Positions 4,604-54,216 of a stretch of 64,000 nucleotides of DNA are shown in pieces. Every line of letters begins with the position of its first letter. Position 1 is the stretch's first letter. This stretch comes from Patescibacteria group bacterium (GTDB taxonomy: Bacteria > Acidobacteriota > Aminicenantia > UBA2199). Location of the stretch: assembly GCA_035528155.1 (NCBI GenBank), contig DATKZA010000001.1:3444-67443 (forward strand). Reading direction: 5' to 3'. The translations under genes and the position numbers were made by a program. Under the pieces are notes generated by a model. It was not told where the DNA came from, did not search any database, and saw nothing but the letters and a program-made list of their open reading frames with translations.

Positions 4604-5530
4604 ATGAAAAACATAACCATTTTTATCTCATTTATGGTCGCAGCGGCACTTTATATGCTTCTGGGCAGACCAGGAGTGGACATGACCGATAAAAGACTGA
4701 CTCCCGAAGAGGAACAGATCATCTTGCATAAAGGAACCGAGCTTCCCTTTTCCGGCAAATACCACGCTTTCAATGAAAAAGGGACCTACGTGTGCAAGCG
4801 CTGCGGCTCAGCCCTCTATCTTTCCTCGGCCAAGTTCGATTCCGGCTGCGGCTGGCCGAGCTTCGATGATGAACTTCCCGGAGCGGTCAAGCGCCAAGTC
4901 GACCCTGACGGCCAGCGCACCGAAATCTCATGCGCCAGCTGCGGCGCCCACCTGGGCCACGTATTTGTCGGCGAAGGCTTCACCGCCCAAAATACCCGCC
5001 ACTGCGTCAATTCCATTTCCATGAACTTCGTCCCGGCCGACGAAAAAAAAACCGAGACGGCCATTTTCGCATCGGGGTATTTCTGGGGAACCCAGTACAC
5101 CCTGCAGCAGGCCAAAGGGGTGCTGACCACGGCCGTGGGTTTCAGCGGCGGCCGCACGTCCCGCCCCACCTACGAAGAGGTTTCCAGCGGCGCCAGCGGT
5201 CACGCCGAGGCTGTACAAGTGGTGTATGACCCGGCCGTCATATCCTACGAGGAACTGGCCAAGCTCTTTTTCGAGACCCACGACTTTACCCAGGTCGATC
5301 GCCAGGGTCCCGACATCGGAACGCAATATCGATCGGAAATTTTTTATCAGGACGAGGGCCAGCGGCAAACCGCCGAAAAACTGACGGAGATTCTGAAAAG
5401 CAAGGGCTTCAAGGTGGCCACGCGCATCACCAGGGCCGGACCTTTCTGGCCCGCCGAAAATTATCACCAGAATTATTACCAGAAAAACGGCAGCCAGCCC
5501 TACTGCCACGTCTACCGCAAAATATTCTGA
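4604..5530 (+). CDS. msrAB: bifunctional peptide-methionine sulfoxide reductase MsrB-MsrA with N-terminal membrane/signal segment
   Basis: MsrB zinc motifs CKRCGSAL and CASCGAHLGHVF; MsrA active-site GYFWG; alternative GTG starts at 4598/4601. Confidence 0.85.
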   Translation: MKNITIFISFMVAAALYMLLGRPGVDMTDKRLTPEEEQIILHKGTELPFSGKYHAFNEKGTYVCKRCGSALYLSSAKFDSGCGWPSFDDELPGAVKRQVDPDGQRTEISCASCGAHLGHVFVGEGFTAQNTRHCVNSISMNFVPADEKKTETAIFASGYFWGTQYTLQQAKGVLTTAVGFSGGRTSRPTYEEVSSGASGHAEAVQVVYDPAVISYEELAKLFFETHDFTQVDRQGPDIGTQYRSEIFYQDEGQRQTAEKLTEILKSKGFKVATRITRAGPFWPAENYHQNYYQKNGSQPYCHVYRKIF

Positions 5531-9731: not shown

Positions 9732-10747
9732 TTGATGCGTACCCTTTCGCCGCCCTTGTTTTCGGTTACCTGACCGATCAGAAAAAATTCCTCATTGATT
9801 TTTTTAAGGGAAGCCTCAAGCGCGGAAAGGTTTCTGGGTTCGATGACCAGCACCATGCCGATACCCATGTTGAACACCCGGTAGCGTTCGGCTTGCGAAA
9901 TATTGCCGGCCTGGACCAGGAAAGAAAAAAGCGGCGGCACGGGCCATGTTTTTTCGATCACTACCGCAGTCGATTCGGGCAAAATGCGCGGGATGTTTTC
10001 TGGCAGCCCGCCACCGGTGATATGGGCCATGCCCTTGAGCAGCTTTTTTTCAAGCAGGGCTTGGACCGGCTTCAGGTAGGAGCGGTGCACGCGCAGCAAT
10101 TCCTCGCCTATGGGCGCGGCCAGCTCACTTACCGTGCTGCTGGTTTTCATATGAAGTTTTTCAAAAACGATATGGCGGGCCAGCGAGTAGCCATTTGTGT
10201 GCAGCCCGGTCGAGGGCAGGCCGACGAGCAGATCGCCTTTGCAGATGGTCTTGCCGTCCACCACGCTTTCCCGGCCGACAATACCGACGATGAAGCCGGC
10301 GATATCGTATTCGCCCTCCTGGTAAAACCCCGGCATTTCCGCCGTTTCACCACCGAGCAGGACCATTTCGTTTTCCAGGCAGCCATCCAGCACGCCGGAG
10401 ATGACCTCGCTGACGATTCCGGGCTCGACCCGCCCCGACGCCAGGTAATCCAGGAAAAACAGGGGCCGGGCCCCGGAAACCAGAATGTCGTTGACGCAGT
10501 GGTTGACCAGGTCGCAGCCGATCGTGTTGTGTATCCCGGTCAGGAAAGCGATCTTCAATTTGGTGCCCACGCCGTCAGCCGAAGAGACCAGGATCGGATT
10601 CTTGATGCCACCTTTCAAAGGGAAAAAACCGCCGAACTTGCCGATCTCCTGCACACCCAGGCGCTTGACCATGGATTTGATCCGATCGACCGCTTCATTG
10701 CCGCGATCGATGCTGACCCCGGCCTGCTCATAAGCACTTTTTTTCAT
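9728..10747 (-). CDS. purM: phosphoribosylformylglycinamidine cyclo-ligase (AIR synthetase)
   Basis: PurM-like sequence (VSSADGVGTKL, GGETAEMPG); GGGAGGAG RBS upstream of ATG. Confidence 0.9.
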   Translation of the reverse strand: MKKSAYEQAGVSIDRGNEAVDRIKSMVKRLGVQEIGKFGGFFPLKGGIKNPILVSSADGVGTKLKIAFLTGIHNTIGCDLVNHCVNDILVSGARPLFFLDYLASGRVEPGIVSEVISGVLDGCLENEMVLLGGETAEMPGFYQEGEYDIAGFIVGIVGRESVVDGKTICKGDLLVGLPSTGLHTNGYSLARHIVFEKLHMKTSSTVSELAAPIGEELLRVHRSYLKPVQALLEKKLLKGMAHITGGGLPENIPRILPESTAVVIEKTWPVPPLFSFLVQAGNISQAERYRVFNMGIGMVLVIEPRNLSALEASLKKINEEFFLIGQVTENKGGERVRIK

Positions 10748-10914
10748 TCACGTCTCCTCCCGGTTTGGCGGGCAAGCGAATTTTACCACAAAAAAGCCAG
10801 GGCCTCCAGCGCTGCATGGGTAACTATTGCATAATCATTGCCTTCACTTTACAATGATTTTTGGCCGGGGGATTGCCCCCCAATGAGGGAACATGAAACA
10901 CCATCCGCCTGTTT

Positions 10915-11676
10915 TTGCGACTGCGCGACCTTGACCGCAACTTGACGATAAAAGAGAAAATCATCCGGGGCGGCTCGGGTTTTTTGCAAATGGTCCGCGT
11001 CGGCTTGTTTCTGCCCCGCTGCCGCAACTGCGGATTGGACCTGGTCCTGAGCGAAGAAATGGTGATTTGCCGGAACTGCCGGGAGAAAATTGTGCCGACC
11101 GCGGAGAACCAGTGCCGGATTTGCGGCAAATTCGTTACTCAAGGAATTGAAAGCTGCGGCGTCTGCCTGCTGCGGCCTCCCCCCTACTTCCGCCACCTAT
11201 CCTATGCCGCCTATGAAGGAACCCTGCGCGAGATCATCATCCTTTACAAATACGGGGAAGTGGAGCCGCTGAAAAATTTTCTGTCCGGTCTTTATCTGGA
11301 CATCATCATGAGAAATCATTTCCCGGCCTTCGACGCCGTGGTCCCGGTTCCGGCCGACCTCCGAAGGAAACACGGCTTCCAGCCGGTCAGCTCCATGGGT
11401 CGGATCCTGGCCAGCCGCTTGGGGATTGAATTCATGCCCCGGTTGCTGCTGAAGAAAAAATGCACCCCGCCCCAGGTCGGCTTGTCGCAGGCGCAAAGAA
11501 AAACCAACCTGGACGGTGCCTTCAGTCTGGCTGCCGGTAAAAAACCATCCGGCCTGCACATCCTGCTCATCGACGACGTGACCACCACCGGCACCACCAT
11601 AAAAAAATGCGCCTTCGTGTTGAAAAAAGGCGGCGCCCGGGTGACGGCGCTCACCTTGGCCCAATCTTGTTTTTAA
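10915..11676 (+). CDS. comFC: ComF family protein / phosphoribosyltransferase domain (ComFC-like)
   Basis: N-terminal Cys-rich zinc motif CRNCG...CRNCREK...CRICG; C-terminal PRTase motif LLIDDVTTTGTT; true start may be ATG ~10990. Confidence 0.7.
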   Translation: MRLRDLDRNLTIKEKIIRGGSGFLQMVRVGLFLPRCRNCGLDLVLSEEMVICRNCREKIVPTAENQCRICGKFVTQGIESCGVCLLRPPPYFRHLSYAAYEGTLREIIILYKYGEVEPLKNFLSGLYLDIIMRNHFPAFDAVVPVPADLRRKHGFQPVSSMGRILASRLGIEFMPRLLLKKKCTPPQVGLSQAQRKTNLDGAFSLAAGKKPSGLHILLIDDVTTTGTTIKKCAFVLKKGGARVTALTLAQSCF

Positions 11677-19636: not shown

Positions 19637-20446
19637 CTAAAAAACGATGAGGCTGGCGTAACCGACCACTTCGTCCATTTCTCCCGTCACTGCCCCGGAA
19701 TGGGTATAGCAGACCAGCTCGGCCCGGGAGGCTCCGGCTGTGCGGGCGGCGCTGAGCATGATCACCGCCGGCGCCACTCCGCACATGGAGATGCGGTTGT
19801 CCGAGACGGTGTGGTACAATCCTTCGGCGTCGAGTTGCAGTACCTTTTCGATGGCTTTAAAATCAAGCTCCCGGGCTCTGGCCGCCGTAATATAATGGCT
19901 CATGTCGCTGGAAGCGACAATCATCAGGTTGCGGTTTTCTTTTAAAAAAACGGCGATTTCCTTACCTGCCGCCAGCAAGTCCTCAAGCCGGCAGGCGCTG
20001 ACAACGATGGGCAGGATGCGCGATCCGGGGCTGGCATAATGGATGAACGGCACCTGCACCTCCAGTGAGTGTTCCAGGCGGCCAGCTTCACTGTCCAGCT
20101 GGAACAAGCCGGAAACGCCCAGCAGGCGCGAGCGCAGTTCGGAATTGACCTCAACATTGCCCAGGGGTGTTTCCCAGTAATCATTGCCGTCCAACGCCAG
20201 GCCCGGCCCAACGCCGCGGTGGTTGACACCCAGGATGATGACGGTTTCGGTCAATTCCACGCGGCCGTAGCCCTGGCCGGCGCAAGCGCCCGAGTACATA
20301 TAACCGGCATGCGGGGCAAGCAGTCCCAGGACTTTCTGCCGGTTTTCAGCAGGCCGGACCATTTGCTGCAATTCAGTTTCCAGGATTTTTTTATCGGACG
20401 GATAAAATTTTCCAACTCCAGCCCAGGCGGTCTTGCGAAACATCAT
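19637..20446 (-). CDS. MEMO1-family protein (AmmeMemoRadiSam system protein B-like)
   Basis: LAPHAGYMYSGACAGQGY and GVNHRG motifs of the Memo-like family. Confidence 0.7.
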   Translation of the reverse strand: MMFRKTAWAGVGKFYPSDKKILETELQQMVRPAENRQKVLGLLAPHAGYMYSGACAGQGYGRVELTETVIILGVNHRGVGPGLALDGNDYWETPLGNVEVNSELRSRLLGVSGLFQLDSEAGRLEHSLEVQVPFIHYASPGSRILPIVVSACRLEDLLAAGKEIAVFLKENRNLMIVASSDMSHYITAARARELDFKAIEKVLQLDAEGLYHTVSDNRISMCGVAPAVIMLSAARTAGASRAELVCYTHSGAVTGEMDEVVGYASLIVF

Positions 20447-20461
20447 GCCATCCTCCTGCCT

Positions 20462-21739
20462 TTATTCAACAATGATCTGCCGGTTCTGCACCACGAGCTT
20501 CCCTGCCTTGAAAACGGTATGCACCGGATTGATGCCCAGGTGGTAGGCCAGATACTGGTAATCGGGGATATCCAGAAGCAGCAGGTCCAATTTCTTGCCC
20601 AGGGCCAGTGAACCGACCTGATGCTGCCGGTCGATGGCGTAGGCCGCGTTGATCGTGACCGCGTTCAAGGCCTGTTCAATGGTCAATCCCATTTGGAAAA
20701 CCGCCAAATGGAAAATCAACAGTTGCGAGGAGATCATAGAGCTCCCGGGGTTGAAATCTGTTCCCAGGGCCACGATGCCATCCGCAGCCAGAATTTTCTG
20801 GGCCGGCGCATAGCGTCCGAGTTTGAGAAAAAAGGAGACACCGGGCAGCAGCACGCAGGACGTCTTGGAAGCGGCAATTTTTGCGATTTCCTCATCGCTG
20901 ATGGCGATCAGATGCGCGGCGGAAATGGCACTGAGCCGGGCGGCCAATTCGGCGGCGCCGTTGGAAGTGAATTCGTCGGCATGCATTTTGATCTTGAAGC
21001 CCCGGGCTGCGGACTGGGTCAGGTAATATTCCGCTTCGGCATAAGAAAAATAACCGTCTTCGCAAAAAATATCCACGAAGTCGGCCAACTGTTTTTCCTG
21101 CACCTTGGGCAGGATATCCCCAAGCAGGTGATCGAGAAAATCCCTGCTTTTCCCCCGGAAAGCATCCGGGATCTCATGGGCGCCCATGAAGGTGGGAACA
21201 ATGGTCACGGGGTGCTGTTCGGCAACGGTTCGCAACGCCTGCAATTGCTTCAATTCGGTTTCCTGGTCCAGGCCGTAACCGCTTTTGGCTTCCAGGGTCG
21301 TCGTGCCGCAGAGCAGCATCTGGTCGAGCCGTTTCCGGCAAACGGCAACCAGGTCTTGAAGGCTGATGGCCCTGGTTTTGCTAACCGTACCCTTGATGCC
21401 GCCGCCGCGGTTGGCGATCTCCTGGTAGCTGACACCCTGCAGCTTCAGGCTGAACTCATCCTGGCGCGTACCGGCGAAAGGAAGATGGGTGTGGGGGTCC
21501 ACCAGCCCCGGCAATGCCACGCAGGCGCCGGCATCCAATTCCAGACCTCCTGGTTCCAGCTGGCAGTGACTGCGAAAATCGGTTTCGCAACCGATGAAGT
21601 TGATCATGCCATGTCGGGCCCCGATGCAAACATTTTCCTGAATGCGCAGGGAGCCGGACTCCTTGCCGCGCACCACGCGGTCGGAGCCGGGATTGACTAG
21701 TTGACTGATGTTGCGGATGACTACATCGACGGCGGTCAT
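20462..21739 (-). CDS. hutI: imidazolonepropionase-like amidohydrolase
   Basis: LVDPHTHLPFAGTRQDEF...SYQEIANRGGGI strongly HutI-like; no hutU/hutH nearby. Confidence 0.7.
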   Translation of the reverse strand: MTAVDVVIRNISQLVNPGSDRVVRGKESGSLRIQENVCIGARHGMINFIGCETDFRSHCQLEPGGLELDAGACVALPGLVDPHTHLPFAGTRQDEFSLKLQGVSYQEIANRGGGIKGTVSKTRAISLQDLVAVCRKRLDQMLLCGTTTLEAKSGYGLDQETELKQLQALRTVAEQHPVTIVPTFMGAHEIPDAFRGKSRDFLDHLLGDILPKVQEKQLADFVDIFCEDGYFSYAEAEYYLTQSAARGFKIKMHADEFTSNGAAELAARLSAISAAHLIAISDEEIAKIAASKTSCVLLPGVSFFLKLGRYAPAQKILAADGIVALGTDFNPGSSMISSQLLIFHLAVFQMGLTIEQALNAVTINAAYAIDRQHQVGSLALGKKLDLLLLDIPDYQYLAYHLGINPVHTVFKAGKLVVQNRQIIVE

Positions 21740-21890
21740 GATTCTTTTCCCTGAGTAAAATTGCCTGAATTCATGAAACCATTGTAAGGGATATTTTGTC
21801 GGATTTCAACAAACGAATCATTGAATTCAATTGTCAGCAATCTCCGCTATTTGACATTTTTTTCAATTGCCGCAAAAAAAAAAAAATAAG

Positions 21891-21930
21891 TTGACAAATC
21901 CGTATTACTGTATTATCATTGTGATACAGT
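21891..21930 (+). promoter_or_regulatory. TTGACA promoter element with overlapping palindrome ACTGTAT-N10-ATACAGT (putative GntR autoregulatory operator)
   Basis: TTGACA 21891-21896; inverted repeat 21907-21913 / 21924-21930 just upstream of the GntR gene; A13 tract at 21874-21886. Confidence 0.45.
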
Positions 21931-21952
21931 GAAAAACTTACTTTTATTTGAA

Positions 21953-22324
21953 ATGACTGTTGATTTTGCTTCGCCGCTGCCGGTATATGAGCAGATCAAA
22001 AAAAACATCAAGCAGGCCATCGCCCGCAATGTCATCCTGGAAAATCAGGCCTTGCCGTCCATTCGCGATCTGGCCCAGTTTCTCAAGATCAACCCAAATA
22101 CCGTGGCCAGGGCCTACCGCGACCTCTCCCAGGAAAAGATCATCAACGGTCGGGCCGGAGTGGGCTTCTGGGTCGAAAAGAGCGAACAGCTCGATTTAAA
22201 GAAAACCGACATGTTGCGTGAAGAGTTTTTCAAATTCACGGAAAAAGCGATTGAATTGGGGTTCTCGCGCCGGCAAATCAAGGACTTGCTCGACAGCTTT
22301 TTTCCGAAGGAGGATGCAAAATGA
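21953..22324 (+). CDS. GntR-family transcriptional regulator (short YtrA-like subfamily)
   Basis: HTH LPSIRDLAQFLKINPNTVARAYRDL; ~124 aa; listed ORF starts at GTG 21929 inside the palindrome, ATG 21953 preferred. Confidence 0.75.
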   Translation: MTVDFASPLPVYEQIKKNIKQAIARNVILENQALPSIRDLAQFLKINPNTVARAYRDLSQEKIINGRAGVGFWVEKSEQLDLKKTDMLREEFFKFTEKAIELGFSRRQIKDLLDSFFPKEDAK

Positions 22325-22947
22325 TGCAAGCCCAAATTTCAGGTGATTTTGTCCGGACAGCCAACGTCCGCGTGCGTTTCGACAGAACCTTGGCTGCCGA
22401 GATCCCGGATCTGGCGATCGAAAACGGAAAAAGAACTCTGCCGGCTTTCAAGGACAAGATATTCTACCTTTGTTTGGGATTCATGGGCAATGCCGCCGAT
22501 GCCCGCGACCTGACCCAGGACACTTTTGCCAAAGCACTGATCCATTATGACCATGACAATCCCGAATATGTACAGGCCTGGCTGATGCGCATCGCCCGCA
22601 ACATCTGCCTGGACCAACTGCGGCGCAGGAAAGTTCGCGGTCCTCAACAACCCGTTTCCGAGTTCACCGCCATTGACTGGAGGACACCGGAATTCAATGC
22701 CGGCACGGAAGAGGAGATACGCATCGTCAGGAAGGCGGTCGCCGGCTTGCCGCGCCGCCTGCGCGAGGTGCTGGTCATGCGCGAATATGGGGAGCTTTCC
22801 TACCAGGAAATCGGCCGCACACTTCACATCAGTACCGCCACGGTGACGTCACGCTTGAACCGGGCCCGCCAGGCCGTACTCCGTTTTTACCAGGAGGAAA
22901 ACAAAATGACAGAAGCCAGAACCCGGAGTGACCATGATCGCCATTGA
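22321..22947 (+). CDS. ECF-type RNA polymerase sigma factor (sigma-70 regions 2 and 4)
   Basis: Region 2 DLTQDTFAKA...WLMRIARN; region 4 YQEIGRTLHISTATVTSRLNRAR; start overlaps GntR stop. Confidence 0.75.
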   Translation: MMQAQISGDFVRTANVRVRFDRTLAAEIPDLAIENGKRTLPAFKDKIFYLCLGFMGNAADARDLTQDTFAKALIHYDHDNPEYVQAWLMRIARNICLDQLRRRKVRGPQQPVSEFTAIDWRTPEFNAGTEEEIRIVRKAVAGLPRRLREVLVMREYGELSYQEIGRTLHISTATVTSRLNRARQAVLRFYQEENKMTEARTRSDHDRH

Positions 22948-23755
22948 GAAGCTCAGTGTCCGTTTCGGCAAGGTCCGGGCGGTCGACGACCTGAGCCTGG
23001 CCATTGATAAGGGTGAAAGCATCCTGCTGGCCGGAGCCAACGGTGCGGGAAAAACGACCTTGCTCAGGACCCTGGCAGGTGTACTGCGCGCCCGGCCGGG
23101 TTCCATCCGTTACGACGGCCGCAAGGCGGACCATCGCACCCGTAAAAAGATCGCCTATATCCCGGCTTCCATCAGCCTGTACGACGGCATGACCGTGAAG
23201 GAAGCGGCGCGAATGCACGCCCATTTCTATGGTCGATCCGCAGCCTGGACCATCAACGGACCGACGTTCCTCCCGGGTCAAAAAATCGCCTCGATGTCCA
23301 AGGGAGAAAAAACCATCTTCTTTCTTTCGCTGGCCCTGGGCGCTGTTCCTGAATACCTTTTCGTCGACGACGTGGTCCACTTTCTCGACCCCCATCTGCG
23401 GGAAGTTTTTCTAACCTCCATCCTGAGACTCATTGAGGAAAAACAGCTCACCGTGATCATGGCCTCGCAATCGGCTTTTGAAATCGAGGGCATTCCCGAA
23501 CGGGTCATGGTCATGGAAAAGGGTAAGGTCATCCTCGATGAAAACGTGGACATGCTGAAGCAAAAGTTCGTCAAATTCTACGGAGAAAGCATTCCCGGCG
23601 ATATCCCGGTCGTATTTTCCAGGCAATGGCAAAACGCCAAGGAAATGTATGTGTACCCCTACCAGCCGGAGCTCCACCGCCTTGACAGCGTCGAGCACTT
23701 GAGCCTGACGGAAATTTTAAGGGCCTTCATAGGAGGCGAATATGCTCGCCACTGA
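22928..23755 (+). CDS. ABC transporter ATP-binding protein
   Basis: Walker A GANGAGKTT; ABC signature region; overlaps sigma gene end by ~20 nt. Confidence 0.8.
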   Translation: MTMIAIEKLSVRFGKVRAVDDLSLAIDKGESILLAGANGAGKTTLLRTLAGVLRARPGSIRYDGRKADHRTRKKIAYIPASISLYDGMTVKEAARMHAHFYGRSAAWTINGPTFLPGQKIASMSKGEKTIFFLSLALGAVPEYLFVDDVVHFLDPHLREVFLTSILRLIEEKQLTVIMASQSAFEIEGIPERVMVMEKGKVILDENVDMLKQKFVKFYGESIPGDIPVVFSRQWQNAKEMYVYPYQPELHRLDSVEHLSLTEILRAFIGGEYARH

Positions 23756-25370
23756 AACCAAGCGCATTTTCAAGGACGGCGTGATCATTTTCATGGTTTT
23801 GGCCGCTATTTTTGCAGGCATCGTCGCCAGCGATCAAGATGTCTATCTGGCCCCGGCCCTGGAAATTTTCCTGCTGCTTTACGCCTCCTTCACGGGCTGG
23901 TCGATGTTCGAAAGGGAGCGGCAGGAAAACGCCGGCGAATACATGCTGTCGCTGCCGTTGTCCCGCAGCCGCCTGCTGCTGCTGAAATTCCTGCCGCGCC
24001 TGCTGAGTGTGTCACTGACTTTTTTGATCTACCTGCGCCTGCACCAGTCCTGGCAACTTCCATCCTTCCTTTCCCCATTCGATTTTTCCCTTTTATACGC
24101 CGGATTTTTTCTGCTTTCGATCGCCTTTTCCATAAGCTTCAAGAACTTCATCAGCGCTTTCTTCATCACCTGCCTGCTGTCGATCGGCCAGATCCTCCTG
24201 ATCAAACTCCTGGACAACAGCCGGGAGATCGGCCAGATCATCTTGCAGGCCAACTTGACCGTTTTGGTCTTCCCCCTCTTTTTCTTTTTTCTTTTTCAGC
24301 GCTATGACATCAAGCCGGTCTCAACCTTCAACAAAAAATTCTTTCCCGGCCTGTTGGCCGCGACCGGCCTGATCGCCGGCTTCATTTTTTACCAGGCTCC
24401 GGCCAACTGGAAGAATCTTACCCTCACCCCAACGGGACTGATCCTTAAAAATTCCTGCGTCCGCAGCGAAATCACCCTGGAGCGGGGACGGAAACGTATT
24501 CCGGGCTGCCTGACCATGCTGCGGGAAAGCGAGGACGGAAACACCCTGTATTGCATGACGCGAAAACTGGACGTCAATAGCCGCTGCATCGAAACGAGCA
24601 TTGTCGCACTCGACCTGAAAACAGGCGATTTGCAAACTCTTTACCGGATCCCGCCGGGCTGGACCATTTACGAAGGACATTACGGAGAATTCGGCAGCAT
24701 TCGCAACGGTACATATTCCCTTTTCCTGCAAAAACCGAAGTCAAAAAAAGCCATGATTCTCGAGATTGACGCCGGGAAAGTCAAGACATTTCCGATCAGG
24801 GGCGATTTTTACGATTCGCGGATCAGCTATGTTTTGCATTTGGCCGGCGAACCCCGTCAACTTGTCATTTTTAGCGAGCCGCGCCTTTACCGCCTGCATG
24901 TTTCCGGCCAGGTGGAAGAGCTCGCCAAGACAAATTCTCTGGACGTCTGGCAAGACAAAATTCTCCTGTTCGAATCCTCGGGTGTGAATCTCTACCGCGT
25001 CGGGGAACAACTGATCCCGCTGCTGCAAAGGAAGGGGAACTACAAAAAAAGCCCGCGCCGGCTCGGCGGCTACGAATCCCCTGGCGTGATTTATCGTACG
25101 GACCGCAGCTACTTCTGGCTGGACATGAAACAGCAGAAAGAGGAAAAATTGGAACTGAAATCTCCGCCATACACCTACCAGCAGAGCGGGGATCATTTCT
25201 ACGTGGTCTTTGTCAACGGCACCGTTTTCACCATCAGGGATATGCGGACCGGAAAGCAGAACGAGATGGTATGGGATCCCGGTTTCAAGCCTGCCGCCAT
25301 CCGCATCTCTCCTTTCGGGATGCTGGTCTTCAGGGATCAAAAATACAAGGTATATCCATTTAAAAATTAA
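23742..25370 (+). CDS. ABC-2-type permease with ~280-aa C-terminal extracytoplasmic domain
   Basis: Six predicted TM helices in the first ~260 aa, then a beta-rich soluble domain; overlaps ATPase stop. Confidence 0.6.
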   Translation: MLATETKRIFKDGVIIFMVLAAIFAGIVASDQDVYLAPALEIFLLLYASFTGWSMFERERQENAGEYMLSLPLSRSRLLLLKFLPRLLSVSLTFLIYLRLHQSWQLPSFLSPFDFSLLYAGFFLLSIAFSISFKNFISAFFITCLLSIGQILLIKLLDNSREIGQIILQANLTVLVFPLFFFFLFQRYDIKPVSTFNKKFFPGLLAATGLIAGFIFYQAPANWKNLTLTPTGLILKNSCVRSEITLERGRKRIPGCLTMLRESEDGNTLYCMTRKLDVNSRCIETSIVALDLKTGDLQTLYRIPPGWTIYEGHYGEFGSIRNGTYSLFLQKPKSKKAMILEIDAGKVKTFPIRGDFYDSRISYVLHLAGEPRQLVIFSEPRLYRLHVSGQVEELAKTNSLDVWQDKILLFESSGVNLYRVGEQLIPLLQRKGNYKKSPRRLGGYESPGVIYRTDRSYFWLDMKQQKEEKLELKSPPYTYQQSGDHFYVVFVNGTVFTIRDMRTGKQNEMVWDPGFKPAAIRISPFGMLVFRDQKYKVYPFKN

Positions 25371-25572
25371 ATAAATCACATTTTAGAAAAGGAGGCCGAA
25401 ATTGAACGGAACAGGTGCAGGCAAAAATAGCGCGGCTGCCGATAATGAAAAGACGTTGGCATTGGCAAAGCATCAGGTGATTTTTAAGATGTCCCGGAAA
25501 GCAATGTCATAGCCGAATCAGAGTAAAGAAATAAAATTGAAAATTAAATATTTTTTAAAAAAGGAGAAAGAA

Positions 25573-27393
25573 ATGAAAAGTGTTAAAGCGTTTTTGTTTG
25601 TCTTGCTGCTCATGCTGGCCTCGTGGGCCTGGTCGGCGGAAATCCACGATGCCGCGCTCAACGGCGACCTGGCCAAGGTCAAGGAACTGCTGGCCAAGAA
25701 CCCGGCGCTGCTTACGGCCGGAAATGACCTCGGCCGCACACCGCTGCATTTGGCCGCGCACCGCGGCCACGTAAAGCTGGCCGCCTGGCTGATCCAGCAG
25801 GGAGCCGACGTCAACGGCAGGGACAGCAGCTACCAGCTGGCCCCGCTGCACCTGGCTGCCTGGGGCGGCGATTTGGAAACCGTCCGCCTGCTGCTCAAGA
25901 AAGGCGCCGATCTGCAGGCCCGGGAAAAAGACAACGAAAACGCCCTTTACTACGCCGCGCTGAGCCCCAACCTGGAACTGGTCAAGTTCCTGGTGGCCAA
26001 GGGCCTGAAAGTCAGGGACACAGAAAGCTCGGCCGGCAACACGCCCCTTTCCATCGCCTTGCAACGGGGCAACCTGGCCATAGCCGAATATTTCCTGGCT
26101 GCGGGCGCCGACGCGCTGTGCAAGGACCGGGAGGGCAGCACCACCCTGCACATGGCCTGCATGCGGGGCAAACAAGCCCTGATTGAGCTCTTGCTCAGGA
26201 AGGGGGTCGCAATTGACGCCCGCGACAATGCAGGCTGGACACCGCTGCTGCTGGCCACGATATTCGGCAACCGCGAGGCGGTCAAAGTTCTCCTGGCGCA
26301 CGGAGCCGATTCCAACACCCGCAATCAAAACGGTCTTTTCCCGCTGCTCCAGGCCGCAAAAGACGGCGCCAGGGAGATCGCCTTGCTGCTGCTGGCTGCC
26401 GGGGCCAGGGCCGGGGATAGCATGGGTGATACCGGAATCGGCGCACTGCACATGGCCTGTGCCCTGGGCTACGGCGATATCGTCAAGGCCCTGCTGGACA
26501 AGGGGGCCGATGCCAACGCCAAAAGCAAGTGGGGCCATTCCCCTCATGGACTGGCCTACCGCTACGGCCACAAGAATATCGCCGAACTTTTGCTGAGCCG
26601 GGGCGCCACTGCAGAAAAGAGTTTGCCAGAGCCGGCCGGGCCCGAATGGCTGAAAAAGCAGTTGTCCGAAGGCGAAGCCCTGGTCTGGTACACGGACCAT
26701 TCGGGTTGGGCGGTCAAAACTGCCAAGCATTTGCTGGTCTTCGACTACTTCAAACCCGGCCCCGCGCCCGACCAGGCCGGGTTGGCCAACGGCACCCTCG
26801 TGCCTGCCGAGCTCAAGGAACAGGCAATGACCGTGTTCATCTCCCACGGCCACAACGACCACTACACACCGGCCTTGTTCGACTGGAAAAAAGAAATCAA
26901 AAACATCACTTACATCACCGGCTTCAAACTCGAAGGCAAAGAAGGTTATCAAATCCTTAGCGCCCATGAAAAACATGCCATGAACGGCATGGAGATCATC
27001 CCCATCGAATCCAACGACAGCGGCCAGGGTTATTTCATCAAGGTAGACGGGGTTTCCATTTTCCATCCCGGCGACCATGCCAACCGCCAGCGCGACTTCT
27101 CCGGTCCCTTCAAAAAGGAGATCGACTTCCTGGCCGACCAGAGCCTCAAGGCCGACATCCTGTTCGCGCCGGTCAGCGGCTGCGGTTTCGGCGACATCGT
27201 TGCTGTAAAAAAAGGCGACTATTACACCATGGATCGCCTGGCGGCCCGCCATGTGTTTCCCATGCATGCCGCCGGCAACCCGCTCCAATACCAGCTGTTC
27301 GCCAAGGAGGCCAAGGGCAGGGGCTATGAAAACGCGTTCCACTGCGCCGAATTCCCCGGCGATTGCTTTGCAGTAAAGCCTATTGGAAGATAG
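25573..27393 (+). CDS. secreted ankyrin-repeat protein fused to C-terminal metallo-beta-lactamase-fold domain (paralog 1)
   Basis: Signal peptide; ~9 ANK repeats (GRTPLHLAAHRGHVKLAAWLIQQGADVN...); C-terminal HxHxDH-like ISHGHNDHY and HPGDHANR; AAGGAG RBS. Confidence 0.75.
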   Translation: MKSVKAFLFVLLLMLASWAWSAEIHDAALNGDLAKVKELLAKNPALLTAGNDLGRTPLHLAAHRGHVKLAAWLIQQGADVNGRDSSYQLAPLHLAAWGGDLETVRLLLKKGADLQAREKDNENALYYAALSPNLELVKFLVAKGLKVRDTESSAGNTPLSIALQRGNLAIAEYFLAAGADALCKDREGSTTLHMACMRGKQALIELLLRKGVAIDARDNAGWTPLLLATIFGNREAVKVLLAHGADSNTRNQNGLFPLLQAAKDGAREIALLLLAAGARAGDSMGDTGIGALHMACALGYGDIVKALLDKGADANAKSKWGHSPHGLAYRYGHKNIAELLLSRGATAEKSLPEPAGPEWLKKQLSEGEALVWYTDHSGWAVKTAKHLLVFDYFKPGPAPDQAGLANGTLVPAELKEQAMTVFISHGHNDHYTPALFDWKKEIKNITYITGFKLEGKEGYQILSAHEKHAMNGMEIIPIESNDSGQGYFIKVDGVSIFHPGDHANRQRDFSGPFKKEIDFLADQSLKADILFAPVSGCGFGDIVAVKKGDYYTMDRLAARHVFPMHAAGNPLQYQLFAKEAKGRGYENAFHCAEFPGDCFAVKPIGR

Positions 27394-27402
27394 GAGAATA
27401 TT

Positions 27403-28944
27403 ATGTTAAATAAAATTATTTTTATTTTATTGGGAATTTATTTTAGTCAGGGGATTATGCCGGCGCAAACCGATAAGCAGGTGGATAGCATGGCATATAC
27501 CCTTGGGTTTTCTACTTATCTTTCACACACCGACAAATATGCTGCTGGTTTTGATATCTATACCGATAGTGATGGATACACCTATGTTTCAGGGAATACC
27601 AGAGATAAAAATTTTCCAACTACAGAAGGAGCGCTTCAAAGAGAGCTCAAGGGAGAAGCGGACGCTTTTGTGGCAAAATTTACGCCGGATGGTAAAATTG
27701 TATTTGCAACCTTAATAGGCGGTACAAAAAGAGAACATCATACAGCCTTAACAGTTGATAAGGATGGGTATATCTATTTGACGGGAGGCACCCATTCTGT
27801 TGATTTTCCTGTAACCCCCGGAGCATACGATACCAGTTTTAACGGAGAAGGTGAATGGGCCGGCGACGTTTACCTTGTAAAAATAAACCCAACCGCAAGT
27901 GCTATTGTTTTCTCAACATTTATTGGTGGAAAAGTGGAGGAAACAGTAAGTGCCGGGAATATTAAGATTGACTCCAAAGGAAATATCCTTATCGCCGGGG
28001 TCACATGTTCACAAGACTTTCCATCCACAAAAGGGGTTATCGACAATAAATTTACGAAGAATGATTCCTTCCTGTCCAAATTCAGCCCCAATGGCGATAA
28101 ACTATTGCTCTCTACTTCTCTGGGAAACGGGGTAATGGAAATGATTACTGGTCTGGCTGTTGATAACAAGGATAGTATTTATGTAACCGGTTTTACCGTT
28201 ACCCCATATCTTCCGGTAACCAAAAATGCCATTCGAAAAAATATGATTAAACCCAAGGTAGGCGGATATGAGGACGGAATTGATCACTTCATAGCCAAAG
28301 TCAATGAAACGGGCACAAAGCTTCTGTATTTAAGTTATTTTGGTGCCGGAGGCCATATGGGCTCTACTCTTTCCTGGGCTGCTCCAAACAGGTTGGTGGC
28401 GTGCGGCAGCACGAAGGAGGATGGGTTTCCAATCACCGAAAATGCACTGGGCAATATAAGGAGAGGAGAAAGGGATTGCTTTATATCGGTTTTTAATTCC
28501 GATGACATGACACTGGAATATTCCACCCTGTTTGGAGGAAGTGAATCCGATAGTATTACAACCGTATCATTTCTCAACAAAGATACGATCATCATTGGGG
28601 GAACAACAATCTCTCCGAATTTTCCGCTTACTAAGAATGCCCTGTTTTCAGAATTCCCTGTTTTGGAAAAGACATTTAACAATACTTTTTTTGGTCGCAG
28701 GAAATCCTTTATTTCCGTGATTGACATCAAGAACAGCAAACTTCTTTATTCGACCTATTTAGGCGGTTGTTTCCGGTTTCAAATTCACGCAGACAAAATT
28801 GGAAATGTTAGTTTTATTGCAGAAGCAGGGCAGCGCGAAGCTGCCGGAATGACGGGTTTCCCTATTACCGAGAATGCTCTTGAGGAACCACCAACCTATA
28901 TCATGCTGGGACGATTGGTATTAAATAATTTTACTAAACAATAA
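27403..28944 (+). CDS. SBBP beta-propeller repeat protein (secreted, AT-rich gene)
   Basis: Repeated motif ...STFIGG...D.G.GIAVD..GNIYVTG.T.S.DFP.T.GA; marked drop in GC and different codon usage versus flanks. Confidence 0.7.
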   Translation: MLNKIIFILLGIYFSQGIMPAQTDKQVDSMAYTLGFSTYLSHTDKYAAGFDIYTDSDGYTYVSGNTRDKNFPTTEGALQRELKGEADAFVAKFTPDGKIVFATLIGGTKREHHTALTVDKDGYIYLTGGTHSVDFPVTPGAYDTSFNGEGEWAGDVYLVKINPTASAIVFSTFIGGKVEETVSAGNIKIDSKGNILIAGVTCSQDFPSTKGVIDNKFTKNDSFLSKFSPNGDKLLLSTSLGNGVMEMITGLAVDNKDSIYVTGFTVTPYLPVTKNAIRKNMIKPKVGGYEDGIDHFIAKVNETGTKLLYLSYFGAGGHMGSTLSWAAPNRLVACGSTKEDGFPITENALGNIRRGERDCFISVFNSDDMTLEYSTLFGGSESDSITTVSFLNKDTIIIGGTTISPNFPLTKNALFSEFPVLEKTFNNTFFGRRKSFISVIDIKNSKLLYSTYLGGCFRFQIHADKIGNVSFIAEAGQREAAGMTGFPITENALEEPPTYIMLGRLVLNNFTKQ

Positions 28945-28972
28945 TAAATATGCACTAAGATAAGGAGAATTT

Positions 28973-30745
28973 ATGAAACACAACAAAGTATTACTGTTTT
29001 GCCTGCTGCTTTTGTTGGCCATATGGGCTTGGGGCGCCGAAATCCATGACGCCGCGCTCAAGGGCGACCTGGCTCAGGTCAAGGAGCTGCTGGCCAGGGA
29101 TCCCTCGTTGATCAACGCCAAAGGCCATAACGAAAAAGCGCCGCTTCATTGGGCCACCCAGGGCGGGCACATCTCCATCGTGAAGTACCTGCTCTCCCGC
29201 GGCGCGGCCGTCGACGACCTGAACATCCAGAAGGAGACGGCGCTGGTCTACGCCGCCGAGGGCGGCCACCTGAAGCTGGCGGAACTGCTCATCGCCAAGG
29301 GGGCCGATCCCAACGTCCGGACCACACTGAAGGTCTCGCCCATCCACTACGCGATTTGGGCGGGCAAAACCGACATGGTCAAGCTGCTGCTGAAGAAGGG
29401 CGCTGACTACAAGTGGGACCGCGGGACAGGATTCACTCTGCTCCACGAGGCGGCCAACCAGGAATCAACGGAAATCGTCGATATTCTGTTGAAAAAGGGG
29501 TTGGCGGTGGATCTGAAGACCCGGTTCGGCGCCACGCCCCTGCATTACGCTTCCTTGCACGGCACCCCGGAGATCGTCTCCTTGCTGATCAAAAAAGGCG
29601 CCGATGTCAACGCCGTTAGCGAGAACGGTTGGTGGCCGCTGGGTCTGGCGGTCAGCAAGGGGAAAGTGCAAATCGCGGCGCTTCTGCTCGCAGCCGGCGC
29701 CCAGGTGAATCGCCAGGACAAGGAAAGCCGGCTCACATCCCTGCATGTGGCCGCCGCCAAGGGCTACGGAAAAACCTGCGCCCTGCTGCTCGAAAATGGG
29801 GCCGACGCCAACTCCCCGGACAAAGACGGCAGGACCCCCTTGTACTATGCCGATCGCTATCAACAAAAGGGGATATCGGCTCTGCTCAAGAGCAAGGGCG
29901 CCAAGCCGGTCGAGAGGGAAAAGCTTTCCGTTCGCCCCTGGCTGACGGAACCCCTGGCCGACGGCCAGGCCGTGGTCTGGTATCTGGGCCATTCGGGCTG
30001 GGCGGTAAAGACCCGGAATCATTTGTTGATTTTTGATTATTGGAAACAGGATGCCGCCCCCGACGAGCCCGGACTGGCCAACGGTTCCATCAATCCGTCG
30101 GAACTTCAGGATATGAACGTGACCGTGTTCGCCTCCCATGCCCATGGCGATCACTATATGCCGAAGATATTCGAATGGCGGAAAACAATACCCAAGATCA
30201 CCTATATCATGGGCTTTAAGCCCGAGAAGGCCGAAGGGTATACGCTGCTGCCCAACCGGGAGAAAAAGCTGATCGGCGGCATGGAGGTCACGGCCATCGA
30301 GTCCAACGACAGCGGCCAGGGATTTTTCGTCAAGGTGGACGGCATTGCCATCTTCCATCCCGGCGATCACGCCAATCGCAAGCGCGATTTTTCCGGGCCG
30401 TTCAAAAAAGAGATCGATTTCCTGGCCGACCAGGGGCTCAGGGCCGATATCCTGTTCGTGCCGGTGAGCGGCTGCGGCTTCGGCGATATCGTCAGCGTCA
30501 AGAAAGGAGTCTATTATACAATCGACCGGTTGGCGGCCCGCTCCGTTTTCCCCATGCATGCCGGCGGAAACGAAACACGTTATCGGGAATTTGCCAAGGA
30601 AGCCAAAAACGCCGCTTATGATGTTCCTTTTTGCCTGCCCGAATTCAGCGGCGACCACTTCATCATCACTCCAGAGGGAGTCAAAGGTGCGTTTGACCAA
30701 GCGACCGCATGTAAAAAGAACGAAAAAAGCGGCTGCAACCGCTAG
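28973..30745 (+). CDS. secreted ankyrin-repeat protein fused to C-terminal metallo-beta-lactamase-fold domain (paralog 2)
   Basis: Collinear with 25573-27393; signal peptide, ANK repeats, ASHAHGDHY/HPGDHANR; C-terminal domain ~85% identical to paralog 1. Confidence 0.75.
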   Translation: MKHNKVLLFCLLLLLAIWAWGAEIHDAALKGDLAQVKELLARDPSLINAKGHNEKAPLHWATQGGHISIVKYLLSRGAAVDDLNIQKETALVYAAEGGHLKLAELLIAKGADPNVRTTLKVSPIHYAIWAGKTDMVKLLLKKGADYKWDRGTGFTLLHEAANQESTEIVDILLKKGLAVDLKTRFGATPLHYASLHGTPEIVSLLIKKGADVNAVSENGWWPLGLAVSKGKVQIAALLLAAGAQVNRQDKESRLTSLHVAAAKGYGKTCALLLENGADANSPDKDGRTPLYYADRYQQKGISALLKSKGAKPVEREKLSVRPWLTEPLADGQAVVWYLGHSGWAVKTRNHLLIFDYWKQDAAPDEPGLANGSINPSELQDMNVTVFASHAHGDHYMPKIFEWRKTIPKITYIMGFKPEKAEGYTLLPNREKKLIGGMEVTAIESNDSGQGFFVKVDGIAIFHPGDHANRKRDFSGPFKKEIDFLADQGLRADILFVPVSGCGFGDIVSVKKGVYYTIDRLAARSVFPMHAGGNETRYREFAKEAKNAAYDVPFCLPEFSGDHFIITPEGVKGAFDQATACKKNEKSGCNR

Positions 30746-30756
30746 TGGAATTTCTG

Positions 30757-30779
30757 CCGGGGGGAGGAAATCCCCCCGG
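30757..30779 (+). terminator. GC hairpin CCGGGGGGA-GGAAA-TCCCCCCGG after ank-MBL paralog 2
   Basis: 9-bp perfect stem 12 nt after the stop codon; weak T-tract (CCCGTTTCATTG); second small hairpin TGTCCGC-TTG-CGGACA at 30791-30807. Confidence 0.5.
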
Positions 30780-30959
30780 CCCGTTTCATTGTCCGCTTGC
30801 GGACAGTAGTGTGCAAAAATGGACAGAATAAAATCTCTCGGGCGCAAGCAGAAGCAGGAATGTGCAGGGTCCTACCTGTGTTATTTTTCAAATCGCTCTC
30901 GTTTCCAGAAATTGGCACCATTCCTGCTCTGTAATTTTGAAACAAATTAGGAGAATGTA

Positions 30960-33212: not shown

Positions 33213-33854
33213 ATGAATTTATTTAAAAAAATGCTTTTTCTCTTGCTCGTACTAATCTGTTTTGGCTGGGGTGATGCCAAGGAGCAGCCGGGCGTACTGA
33301 CGCCGGAGAACGCCAACGAGGCCAGATTGAACCGCCTGCAGCCGCCGGAAAAAGTGCTGGACGCCATCGGCGTTCGCCCCGGCATGGCGGTGGCGGAGAT
33401 CGGCGCCGGCCGCGGCCGCTACGCAGTGCAGCTGGCGGTACGGGTGGGGCCAGGCGGCAGGGTGTATGCCGAGGACATCAACGCGGCTGCGCTGGATCAC
33501 CTGCAGAAGCGCTGTCGGCGCTGGAAGCTGGAAAACGTCGAGGTCATCCTCGGGGATGTGACTGACCCCAAGCTGCCGCCCGAGCAGCTGGACCTGATAT
33601 GGATCGTCTCCTCCTATCATCACTTTGACGATCCGGTCGCTCTTCTGCGCCGGGCGCGAAAAGCATTGAAGCCCGGCGGCCGTTTGGCGATCGGAGAATG
33701 GATCTCGATCAACGAAGTCGGCCGGCACGGCACGACCTCCGAAAACATCGTCAAGCAGATGGAGACCGCCGGCTATGCCCTGGAGCGCATCGAAACGTTT
33801 CTCAAAGAGAATAATTTTCTCATTTACCTGTTTCGCCTGGACGGGGGCCGCTGA
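33213..33854 (+). CDS. class I SAM-dependent methyltransferase-fold protein with N-terminal signal/anchor (paralog 1)
   Basis: Motif I VAEIGAGRGRY, acidic motif II YAEDIN; hydrophobic N-terminus LFLLLVLICFGWG. Confidence 0.65.
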   Translation: MNLFKKMLFLLLVLICFGWGDAKEQPGVLTPENANEARLNRLQPPEKVLDAIGVRPGMAVAEIGAGRGRYAVQLAVRVGPGGRVYAEDINAAALDHLQKRCRRWKLENVEVILGDVTDPKLPPEQLDLIWIVSSYHHFDDPVALLRRARKALKPGGRLAIGEWISINEVGRHGTTSENIVKQMETAGYALERIETFLKENNFLIYLFRLDGGR

Positions 33855-53324: not shown

Positions 53325-53457
53325 ATTTTAAGACAAAAACCATAACTTGGCAAGCGCCGCCTGACGGCCGTCTTGAAAAAAAGAAAATAAATAAAGGGGT
53401 AAAAATTGACAAAGTGAAATATCTTTAATAAAATTATTTTTAACACAAACCAGAAAT

Positions 53458-54216
53458 ATGGATACACTAAAGAAATTCCTCACCCACTACAAGGCCGGCG
53501 ACATCATCTATAAAAAAGGTGAAATCCAGACCGATTTTTACATTCTCAACAAAGGCAAGGTCCAACTGAAGAGTGACAGCAGCGGCCGGATTCTGATCAC
53601 GCTGACAAAAGGTGATTTTTTCGGCGAGGAATCATTGAACAACGAACAGAACGCGATCTATACGGTGGAAGTCATCGAAGACGCGGACATGATCAAGATC
53701 CCCTACATTTCTTTGACCGAAATGCTCAAGCAGACACCCGACATTGCCTTGAAAGTATTGAAGAAACTGAGCGAAAAACATATAAAAATCCAAACTGTTC
53801 TGATGGATATGCCGATCCCCGCCCCGGTCGCAAAGGAAAAGCCGGATGGCAAGGAAGTGAAAAAAGAAGACCAGACTTCTGAAAAGATCAATACCGACGT
53901 CAAAGCCTATTTGATCATTCAACGCTCGAACCGCCTGGTGCAGCTGACCAAGACCCAAACCTTTTTGGGCCGGCGGGATTACACCACCGGATTTGTTCCC
54001 GACATCGACCTGACGGACGAGGATGAAGAGAAGTACATTTCACGCAAGCATTCCAAGATCCAGTTCAAGGACGGCAAATTTTATCTTTCCGAGGAACCCG
54101 GCGCCATTAACGGCACTTTCCTGAACGGCAATAAACTGCAAACCGGGGTCAAACATGAACTGCACGCTGAAGACGAGATCACCCTCTGTCATTTGAATAT
54201 TATCTTCAAAGTCTGA
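53458..54216 (+). CDS. cyclic-nucleotide-binding domain protein fused to C-terminal FHA domain
   Basis: cNMP-binding motifs (GDIIYKKGE...FGEESL); FHA motifs (TFLGRR...ISRKHSKIQF...INGTFLNGNKL). Confidence 0.7.
   Translation: MDTLKKFLTHYKAGDIIYKKGEIQTDFYILNKGKVQLKSDSSGRILITLTKGDFFGEESLNNEQNAIYTVEVIEDADMIKIPYISLTEMLKQTPDIALKVLKKLSEKHIKIQTVLMDMPIPAPVAKEKPDGKEVKKEDQTSEKINTDVKAYLIIQRSNRLVQLTKTQTFLGRRDYTTGFVPDIDLTDEDEEKYISRKHSKIQFKDGKFYLSEEPGAINGTFLNGNKLQTGVKHELHAEDEITLCHLNIIFKV

Follow-up and report, generated by a model that had tools for sequence, protein, structure and literature searches.

An Aminicenantia locus in which two paralogous ankyrin-repeat/metallo-β-lactamase-fold proteins, predicted to be exported, flank a horizontally exchanged SBBP gene

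Organization of the locus

We analysed a 64,000-nt stretch of DNA, hereafter the window (contig DATKZA010000001.1 of assembly GCA_035528155.1, positions 3,444 to 67,443 of the forward strand), with attention to three consecutive genes on its plus strand. The outer two, P1 and P2, encode paralogous proteins in which a predicted signal peptide is followed by a series of ankyrin repeats and a C-terminal domain of the metallo-β-lactamase (MBL) fold. Between them lies a gene for an SBBP β-propeller protein that carries the marks of recent horizontal exchange. The original prediction, made by reading the letters, had placed three plus-strand open reading frames (ORFs) here; all three were recovered with the same boundaries, and the signal peptide, roughly nine ankyrin repeats and C-terminal MBL domain with characteristic motifs that it described for the outer pair were borne out. 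The features of the three genes are as follows:

25573–27393, +, P1 (HUU04264.1, 606 aa; ORF call, Pfam and AlphaFold2 (AF2) model)
25573–25638, +, P1 signal peptide, aa 1–22 (rule-based call)
25639–26610, +, P1 ankyrin solenoid, aa 23–346 (N-cap and nine repeats), followed by a linker
26641–27390, +, P1 MBL-fold domain, PF13483, aa 357–606
26845–26862, +, P1 HxHxDH motif, HGHNDH, aa 425–430
27064–27066, 27151–27165 and 27256–27267, other P1 metal-site residues: H498, D528 (in ADILF) and H565 (in FPMH), respectively
26985–27279, +, most conserved MBL core, P1 aa 471–569, an 82% direct repeat of 30277–30571
27403–28944, +, SBBP β-propeller gene (HUU04265.1, 513 aa), with a signal-peptide-like N-terminus
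27370–28983, +, low-GC segment of 1,614 bp: last few P1 codons, SBBP gene and P2 ribosome-binding site (blastn breakpoints)
28973–30745, +, P2 (HUU04266.1, 590 aa; ORF call and Pfam)
28973–29038, +, P2 signal peptide, aa 1–22
29039–29905, +, P2 ankyrin solenoid, aa 23–311 (N-cap and eight repeats)
29933–30682, +, P2 MBL domain, aa 321–570, followed by a Cys-containing 20-aa tail
30137–30154, +, P2 HxHxDH motif, HAHGDH, aa 389–394; also H462, D492 and H529

The starts of P1 and P2 are 3,400 bp apart, in line with the predicted spacing of 3.4 kb. An alternative TTG start for P1, at 25537, would add 12 aa relative to the ATG. No third copy of the ankyrin–MBL gene was detected by tblastn within the window.

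Signal peptide and ankyrin solenoid

The N-termini of P1 and P2 (MKSVKAFLFVLLLMLASWAWS and MKHNKVLLFCLLLLLAIWAWG, each followed by AE) consist of a positively charged n-region and a 12-aa hydrophobic core (Kyte–Doolittle 2.8–3.5) leading to cleavage-type sites, AWS↓AE and AWG↓AE. With small residues at −3 and −1 and no lipobox cysteine, both have the character of Sec (type I) signal peptides, and no further transmembrane or hydrophobic segment was found in either protein. Signal peptides were called by rules and by conservation across the family, and on these sequence features we judge export of P1 and P2 to be likely. The predicted mature protein begins exactly at the ankyrin N-cap.

Ankyrin families of Pfam (repeat hidden Markov models (HMMs) PF00023 and PF12796) match the two proteins at E-values of 1e-51 to 1e-59. 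Counting the N-cap, P1 has ten ankyrin units and P2 nine, P1 having one extra repeat, and the helix pairs are visible in the AF2 model. As candidates for anti-phage defence the proteins were considered and set aside, the PADLOC matches (PDC-M72A, Ankyrin and MzaA) being confined to the ankyrin region. Models of ankyrin effectors of type IV secretion systems (T4SS; AnkH, AnkY and others) reach at most 120 bits against cut-offs of 450–1400, over the ankyrin region only, and the Dot/Icm T4SS ankyrin effector and MzaA models together reach at most 133 bits against the same range. Both sets of matches arise from the ankyrin repeats and fall far under the cut-offs.

Fold and metal site of the C-terminal domain

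Both C-terminal domains match PF13483 (Lactamase_B_3), for which the gathering score is 24, P1 with 45.7 bits and P2 with 42.3 bits. An AF2 model of P1 residues 350–606 (predicted local distance difference test (pLDDT) 94.3, predicted template modelling score (pTM) 0.93) shows the alpha-beta/beta-alpha sandwich of the MBL fold, and its top Foldseek matches are UlaG, TM_1162, the Vibrio cholerae structure 3bv6, FrsH/CmlA and Igni18. In a first profile search of PDB sequences the ankyrin columns dominated; with an alignment of the MBL domain only, the sole solved relatives were TM_1162 (UPF0173, E = 1e-5) and 3kl7. The fold that the original prediction had read from motifs is thus upheld by profile and by structure, and the profile places the domain among UPF0173/UlaG-like proteins.

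The motifs HGHNDH in P1 and HAHGDH in P2, together with FHPGDH in both, contribute to a metal site that comprises H425/H427/D429/H430, H498, D528 and H565 in P1 and H389/H391/D393/H394, H462, D492 and H529 in P2. Across 149 family members (P1 numbering), D429, H430, D501 and H565 are invariant, and H425, H427, H498, H502, D528, H376, E516 and C537 are conserved in at least 90%. Since the metal-site columns are invariant or at least 90% conserved, the binuclear site is complete in both paralogues. Residues H376, D391, E516 and C537 of P1 are specific to the family. We place the C-terminal domain, as an MBL-fold hydrolase, in the nuclease/phosphodiesterase/UlaG-like branch, with metal binding and hydrolysis predicted from conservation and the structural model. 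As a β-lactamase the domain was tried and rejected: close similarity to class B (B1, B2 or B3) enzymes of PF00753 was not found.

The full-length AF2 model of P1 is equally confident (pLDDT 96.6, pTM 0.92), and this holds for the linker (pLDDT of at least 96), so that the ankyrin rod would be held in a fixed geometry relative to the hydrolase. In the PDB no chain spans both domains; the best query-normalised TM-score, 0.48, concerns the ankyrin part only.

A widespread and unstudied family

To define the family we carried out an exhaustive HMM search of 1.84 billion representative sequences with an MBL-only profile, which returned 2539 matches at E ≤ 1e-3, 1588 at E ≤ 1e-10 and 568 at E ≤ 1e-30, comprising hundreds of clusters at 50% identity. 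A word-indexed search had given 57 clusters, which would have made the family rare; the exhaustive profile search overturned this. Among the best 148 matches, 126 proteins have at least 500 aa, and every one of these carries 4–14 ankyrin repeats. A signal-peptide-like N-terminus is present in 121 of the 126, which mostly ends as ...A/G↓EIH(D/E)A, directly ahead of the EIH(D/E)A of the conserved N-cap. Most of the shorter matches are fragments with ankyrin remnants, and many of those of 340–430 aa are fragments or frameshift-split genes from long-read assemblies. In two related loci, L002 and L003 (ERZ25039527 and ERZ25039554), many genes are split by frameshifts, with an ankyrin–MBL gene, for example, called as 214 + 401 aa; these splits look like long-read assembly errors that inflate the count of short family members.

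Members named "ankyrin repeat domain-containing protein" come from Candidatus Aminicenantes, CSSED10-310, Krumholzibacteriota and an FCB group bacterium, and those named "MBL fold metallo-hydrolase" from Edwardsbacteria, Planctomycetes and Acidobacteriota, while the JGI label is "ankyrin repeat protein/L-ascorbate metabolism protein UlaG". The architecture is therefore widespread in metagenomes, generically annotated and unstudied. The original prediction had taken it to be unusual, a view that does not survive hundreds of clusters already labelled by annotation pipelines. Its companion remark, that the fusion is uncharacterised, agrees with our searches: we found no paper on a fusion of signal peptide, ankyrin repeats and MBL domain, no solved structure spanning both domains, and nothing relevant in the literature for Aminicenantes with ankyrin, for DUF5916 or for the function of UPF0173.

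Divergence of the paralogues

P1 and P2 are paralogues with 49% amino-acid identity overall, 40% in the ankyrin part and 64% in the MBL domain. The C-terminal domains had been predicted to be about 85% identical; this is true of a 99-aa core (P1 aa 471–569; 26985–27279 against 30277–30571), with 83% amino-acid and 82% nucleotide identity, and not of the domain as a whole, at 64% and 69.6%. Gene conversion was considered for this 295-nt core and rejected, as the proportion of synonymous differences there (pS 0.50) is within the 0.48–0.82 of the rest of the gene. The likeness of the core therefore reflects constraint, since its synonymous divergence is as high as elsewhere; between P1 and P2 that divergence approaches saturation along the whole length.

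P1 and P2 are each matched by a separate orthologue in the related loci L002 and L010, and the duplication thus predates these lineages. Between the window and the related locus L001, the ratio of nonsynonymous to synonymous divergence (dN/dS, ω) is 0.23 for the ankyrin part of P2, 0.12 for the P2 MBL domain and 0.15 for the C-terminal domain of P1. By these sequence comparisons both domains are under purifying selection, and both copies would still be functional. The faster divergence of the ankyrin part and its variable number of repeats fit a view in which P1 and P2 have different specificities.

The same divergence bears on a proposal that P1 and P2 are effectors or toxins directed at eukaryotic hosts or bacterial competitors, with the ankyrin part binding a target-cell protein and the MBL domain being toxic as a nuclease or phospholipase. 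Ankyrin repeats are a typical feature of effectors aimed at hosts, partial matches to the T4SS ankyrin models do occur, the ankyrin part diverges faster than the MBL domain, repeat number ranges from 4 to 14, and one family member lies among proteins with type IX secretion system (T9SS) tails. Those model matches, however, are far below their cut-offs and confined to the ankyrin region, export would rely on a standard Sec signal, neither secretion-system nor immunity genes adjoin P1 and P2 at the loci examined, the ankyrin domain is under purifying selection, and the hosts belong to free-living sediment or anaerobic lineages. We regard this proposal as unlikely. The host interaction with which the original prediction linked ankyrin repeats is likewise not supported, on the grounds of the free-living Aminicenantia, Sec export and the weak T4SS matches.

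The SBBP gene is a recently exchanged cassette

The protein encoded between P1 and P2 belongs to PF06739 (SBBP; 44.7 bits against a gathering score of 20.5). Its gene has a G+C content (GC) of 0.41 and a third-position G+C content (GC3) of 0.38, compared with a GC3 of 0.69–0.77 in its neighbours (P1 0.77, P2 0.755). The gene is 97–99.7% identical in nucleotide sequence to its counterparts in L001 and L010, where identity falls to 73–79% in P1 and to about 86% in P2; the whole low-GC segment (27370–28983) is 96–99.7% identical, against 73–95% in the flanks. Synonymous divergence (dS) from L001 is 0.049 for the SBBP gene and 0.35–0.90 for neighbouring genes. L002 lacks the gene altogether: only 15 nt separate the stop codon of P1 from the start of P2 there, and the 1,614 bp of the window replace 53 bp of this empty P1/P2 junction. 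A further locus, L011, has an SBBP gene with 92% identity beside a shared ABC2 flank with only 67%, and its neighbours are different exported hydrolases. Taken together, the GC3, the dS, the identity relative to the flanks and the absence from L002 identify the SBBP gene as a recently exchanged cassette in a hotspot of exported-protein genes, in keeping with the foreign look that the original prediction had noted.

The identity of the window to L001 rises from 75% to 96% over the last ~400 bp of P1. This suggests, from the alignments, that the tract of exchange stopped within the conserved core of the P1 MBL domain and that the homology arms were the orthologous flanks, not the paralogous copies. 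Compared with L010, the interval 20406–28944 is a mosaic, with a baseline of 90–98%, a dip to 79% at ~22.2 kb in the ECF (extracytoplasmic function) sigma gene and another to 73–77% at 26.4–27.0 kb, where P1 passes from its final ankyrin repeats into the first half of its MBL domain, followed by 96–99% over the SBBP gene. Such a mosaic suggests repeated allelic exchange at the locus.

The original prediction had suggested that P1 and P2, as direct repeats, could cause the intervening gene to be deleted or duplicated. Gene content between and around the copies does vary among relatives, from none in L002 through one in the window to four in L001 and L010. However, the copies are only 62–70% identical in nucleotide sequence and have no exact match longer than 20 bp, making them poor substrates for recombination. 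In addition, near-saturated synonymous divergence everywhere speaks against recent gene conversion, both genes are whole in L002 with breakpoints at the P1 stop and P2 start, at gene ends and outside the homologous parts, no chimeric single P1/P2 gene was seen among relatives, and the identity gradient inside the 3′ end of P1 fits exchange between genomes via orthologous flanks. Recombination between the copies is accordingly very improbable, and we retain exchange between genomes as the origin of the cassette.

Two other identities for the SBBP gene were considered. As a transposon it was rejected: the 18-nt terminal inverted repeats (27404–27421 and 28923–28940) are not conserved in L010, L011 or L003, and are a chance match in A/T-rich sequence. 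The model of the Leptospira LipL53-type lipoprotein (NF047494) gave 52.8 bits against a cut-off of 400, and there is no cysteine in the signal region.

Neighbouring genes and related loci

The genes adjoining the locus encode GntR, ECF sigma, ABC (ATP-binding cassette), SBBP, DUF5916 and methyltransferase proteins. The flanking features are:

21929–25370, +, conserved upstream operon: GntR (YtrA-like), ECF-type sigma-70, ABC ATPase and ABC-2 permease genes
30756–30780, +, G+C-rich hairpin of ten pairs, just 3′ of P2
30960–33182, +, exported DUF5916/CBM9-like protein, 740 aa

Judged from the sequence, P1, the SBBP gene and P2 probably form one transcription unit: the intergenic gaps are only 9 nt and 28 nt, and P2 is followed by a strong hairpin, the likely end of the unit. 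The similar start contexts of the SBBP gene and P2, to which the original prediction drew attention, are real and are nothing special. They follow the local Shine–Dalgarno consensus (A/T-rich sequence, AAGGAGA, 6–8 nt, ATG), which also precedes P1, the DUF5916 gene and genes of L001–L003, and their likeness is hence that of an ordinary ribosome-binding site. No tRNA was found in the window.

In all relatives the GntR/ECF sigma/ABC ATPase/ABC-2 permease operon is kept, and the variable exported-protein genes always start downstream of it. After the ABC-2 permease gene, the gene orders are:

L002: P1, P2 (15 nt apart), DUF5916
Window: P1, SBBP, P2, DUF5916
L001 and L010: P1, SBBP, PD40, PD40, methyltransferase, P2 (DUF5916 absent)
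L003: SBBP, PD40, one P2-type gene, ftsZ
L011: S9 peptidase, esterase, SBBP, serine β-lactamase-like gene

The setting bears on the possibility that P1 and P2 are periplasmic β-lactamases or other antibiotic-inactivating enzymes, a role that would fit an envelope-stress operon of the YtrA-like GntR/ECF-sigma/ABC type upstream. The proteins have the MBL fold, are predicted to be exported and adjoin this regulatory and transport module, and the hotspot of L011 holds a serine β-lactamase-like gene. Set beside the lack of close similarity to class B enzymes noted above, we consider this role very unlikely and keep to the assignment to the phosphodiesterase/UlaG-like branch.

The DUF5916 gene is present in the window and in L002, and absent from L001, L010 and L003. 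DUF5916/CBM9-like genes also occur near ankyrin–MBL genes in L006 (3255–4229) and L007 (2007–4235), which are of two different locus types. The DUF5916 protein may be a functional partner or merely another cassette.

In all relatives the ABC-2 permease gene (23742–25370) is conserved and borders the variable region on its left, and its product has a C-terminal extension of ~310 aa (24432–25370) without a Pfam match. Between this gene and P1 is a small ORF (25402–25518; TTG start, 38 aa, good Shine–Dalgarno sequence), the counterpart of which in L010 is a called gene (5000–5149, 49 aa) with amino-acid changes. The same exported-protein hotspot contains genes for class I S-adenosylmethionine (SAM)-dependent methyltransferases with signal-peptide-like N-termini (for example MNLFKKMLFLLLVLICFGWGDA...), at 33213–33854 in the window and at 10602–11300 and 13235–13876 in L010. 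Export of these enzymes would be odd, as SAM is a cytoplasmic cofactor. A second low-GC kilobase lies at 53001–54000 (GC 0.453 against a window mean of 0.545).

The European Nucleotide Archive (ENA) record of L010, 90–98% identical to the window upstream of the locus, is named Aminicenantia UBA2199 sp004525465. Given this name for the same locus, the NCBI labels "Patescibacteria group bacterium" and "Chrysiogenales bacterium" (HUU04264–66, SPCN01000059) are probably wrong.

Proposed function

We propose that P1 and P2 are ancient duplicates in a large family of bacterial proteins exported by Sec. The signal peptide would be cleaved and the mature protein would act in the periplasm or outside the cell, with its ankyrin solenoid (4–14 repeats across the family) rigidly joined to a C-terminal binuclear-metal hydrolase of the PF13483 (UPF0173/Igni18/UlaG-like) branch. 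By analogy with the nearest structural relatives, the most likely chemistry would be metal-activated hydrolysis of a phosphodiester or a related ester, and the ankyrin groove may recruit or position a macromolecular substrate or partner. The SBBP gene, unrelated to P1 and P2, is a low-GC cassette recently exchanged horizontally among Aminicenantia lineages, one that landed in the P1–P2 operon within the hotspot downstream of the GntR/ECF-sigma/ABC operon. We are highly confident of the architecture, fold, family and cassette, and incline, with some reserve, towards the statement as a whole, namely exported hydrolase paralogues with a transferred cassette. Phosphodiesterase-type chemistry with ankyrin-mediated targeting is a tentative suggestion, drawn by analogy, that we would put at somewhat below even chances.

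Several observations weigh against this proposal. The family is known from sequences and predicted structures alone. The signal-peptide call is rule-based, and an uncleaved signal anchor remains an alternative for P1 and P2. The ankyrin surface is poorly conserved across the family. The same MBL subfamily also occurs as a signal peptide and MBL domain only (~280–300 aa), as well as behind a signal peptide and an N-terminal DJ-1/PfpI domain (PF01965; P0169, P0279 and P0292). From these forms it follows that the hydrolase can work without the ankyrin domain and that the N-terminal module is interchangeable. A search for a conserved partner gene found none: the genes around five distant members are unrelated, and only DUF5916 recurs (window, L006 and L007). 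Finally, the nearest characterised structures are 13–20% identical and include lactonase, RNase, phospholipase D and hydroxylase activities. With identity so low and activities so mixed, the substrate class can be assigned only weakly.

The same mixture of activities allows an alternative in which the MBL domain is an exported lactonase, either UlaG-like or quorum-quenching on N-acyl-homoserine lactones, that degrades signalling or sugar lactones, with the ankyrin part serving only as a scaffold. Lactonase is one of the activities listed above, next to RNase, phospholipase D and hydroxylase, at identities that carry little weight for any of them; we find this alternative doubtful, and continue with hydrolysis of a phosphodiester or related ester as the preferred chemistry.

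To our knowledge, exported bacterial ankyrin proteins are few, and those studied are binding proteins without enzymatic parts. Here, an apparently active metallohydrolase is rigidly fused to ankyrin repeats in hundreds of clusters from Aminicenantes, Krumholzibacteriota, Edwardsbacteria and the FCB group. It is conceivable, and in our estimation improbable, that the fusion represents a major class of exported "targeted hydrolases" that has gone unrecognised in anaerobic phyla without cultured members. If so, a rigid, fast-evolving solenoid would select a specific macromolecule, for instance a phosphodiester attached to protein, a polymer of the cell envelope or a surface component of a competitor, and present it to the binuclear metal centre. 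P1 and P2 would then differ in target, and the co-located SBBP, PD40 and DUF5916 proteins would be partners or substrates, not bystanders. One characterised member would annotate the whole family and reveal what an ankyrin rod binds in the periplasm or outside the cell. The cassette part is ordinary accessory-gene biology; the locus nevertheless offers a clean natural case in which a low-GC cassette has entered an operon by exchange between lineages and the boundaries of the tract can be measured.

Comparison with known systems

RNase L (nine ankyrin repeats, a pseudokinase and a nuclease; PDB 4oav) likewise has an N-terminal solenoid of ~nine repeats and a C-terminal hydrolase, and the structural match is on the ankyrin part only. 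Its catalytic domain is unrelated, and the protein is eukaryotic, cytoplasmic and ligand-activated, so that the likeness is one of architecture only.

Pseudomonas AnkB is a periplasmic ankyrin protein. Two further examples are Rickettsia RARP-1 (bioRxiv 10.1101/2022.02.23.481736) and Bdellovibrio Bd3460, an immunity protein for DD-endopeptidases (PMC4686830). All three are bacterial proteins exported by Sec, and each works in the periplasm through a partner protein that it binds. Unlike P1 and P2, they are ankyrin-only, with no fused enzyme, and are compared here by repeat type.

On the side of the hydrolase, the MBL phosphodiesterases and nucleases CPSF3, RNase J, RNase Z and NAPE-PLD are 11–16% identical to the C-terminal domain. 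In contrast to them, P1 and P2 lack a β-CASP or RNA-binding insertion domain and are predicted to be extracytoplasmic.

UlaG is the best Foldseek match to the C-terminal domain (E = 2e-14, TM-score 0.65) and supplies the JGI name for family members. It is cytoplasmic and hexameric, carries one Mn2+ and belongs to the ula/phosphotransferase system (PTS) operon for ascorbate utilisation, none of which holds for P1 and P2. UlaG has a side activity on bis(p-nitrophenyl) phosphate, and an aspartate, Asp184, with a single Mn2+ takes the place of the third-motif histidine (PMC7846560).

A further comparison is with the UPF0173/PF13483 proteins TM_1162 of Thermotoga maritima (PDB 3x2x–3x2z) and Igni18 of Ignicoccus hospitalis (PDB 6hrg), which are single-domain, cytoplasmic and ~230 aa long. 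Igni18 is promiscuous, with metal-dependent activity as a phosphodiesterase, a phospholipase C and a lactonase (PMC7846560). P1 and P2 are 17–20% identical to these proteins and differ in their predicted export, their ankyrin solenoid of 290–325 aa, a family-specific GDHANRxRDFSGPF loop and an SGCGFGD motif. The third-motif histidine, which lies in FHPGDH and aligns to IYHAGD of TM_1162, is kept in P1 and P2 as in Igni18, in contrast to the aspartate of UlaG, a residue taken from the paper only.

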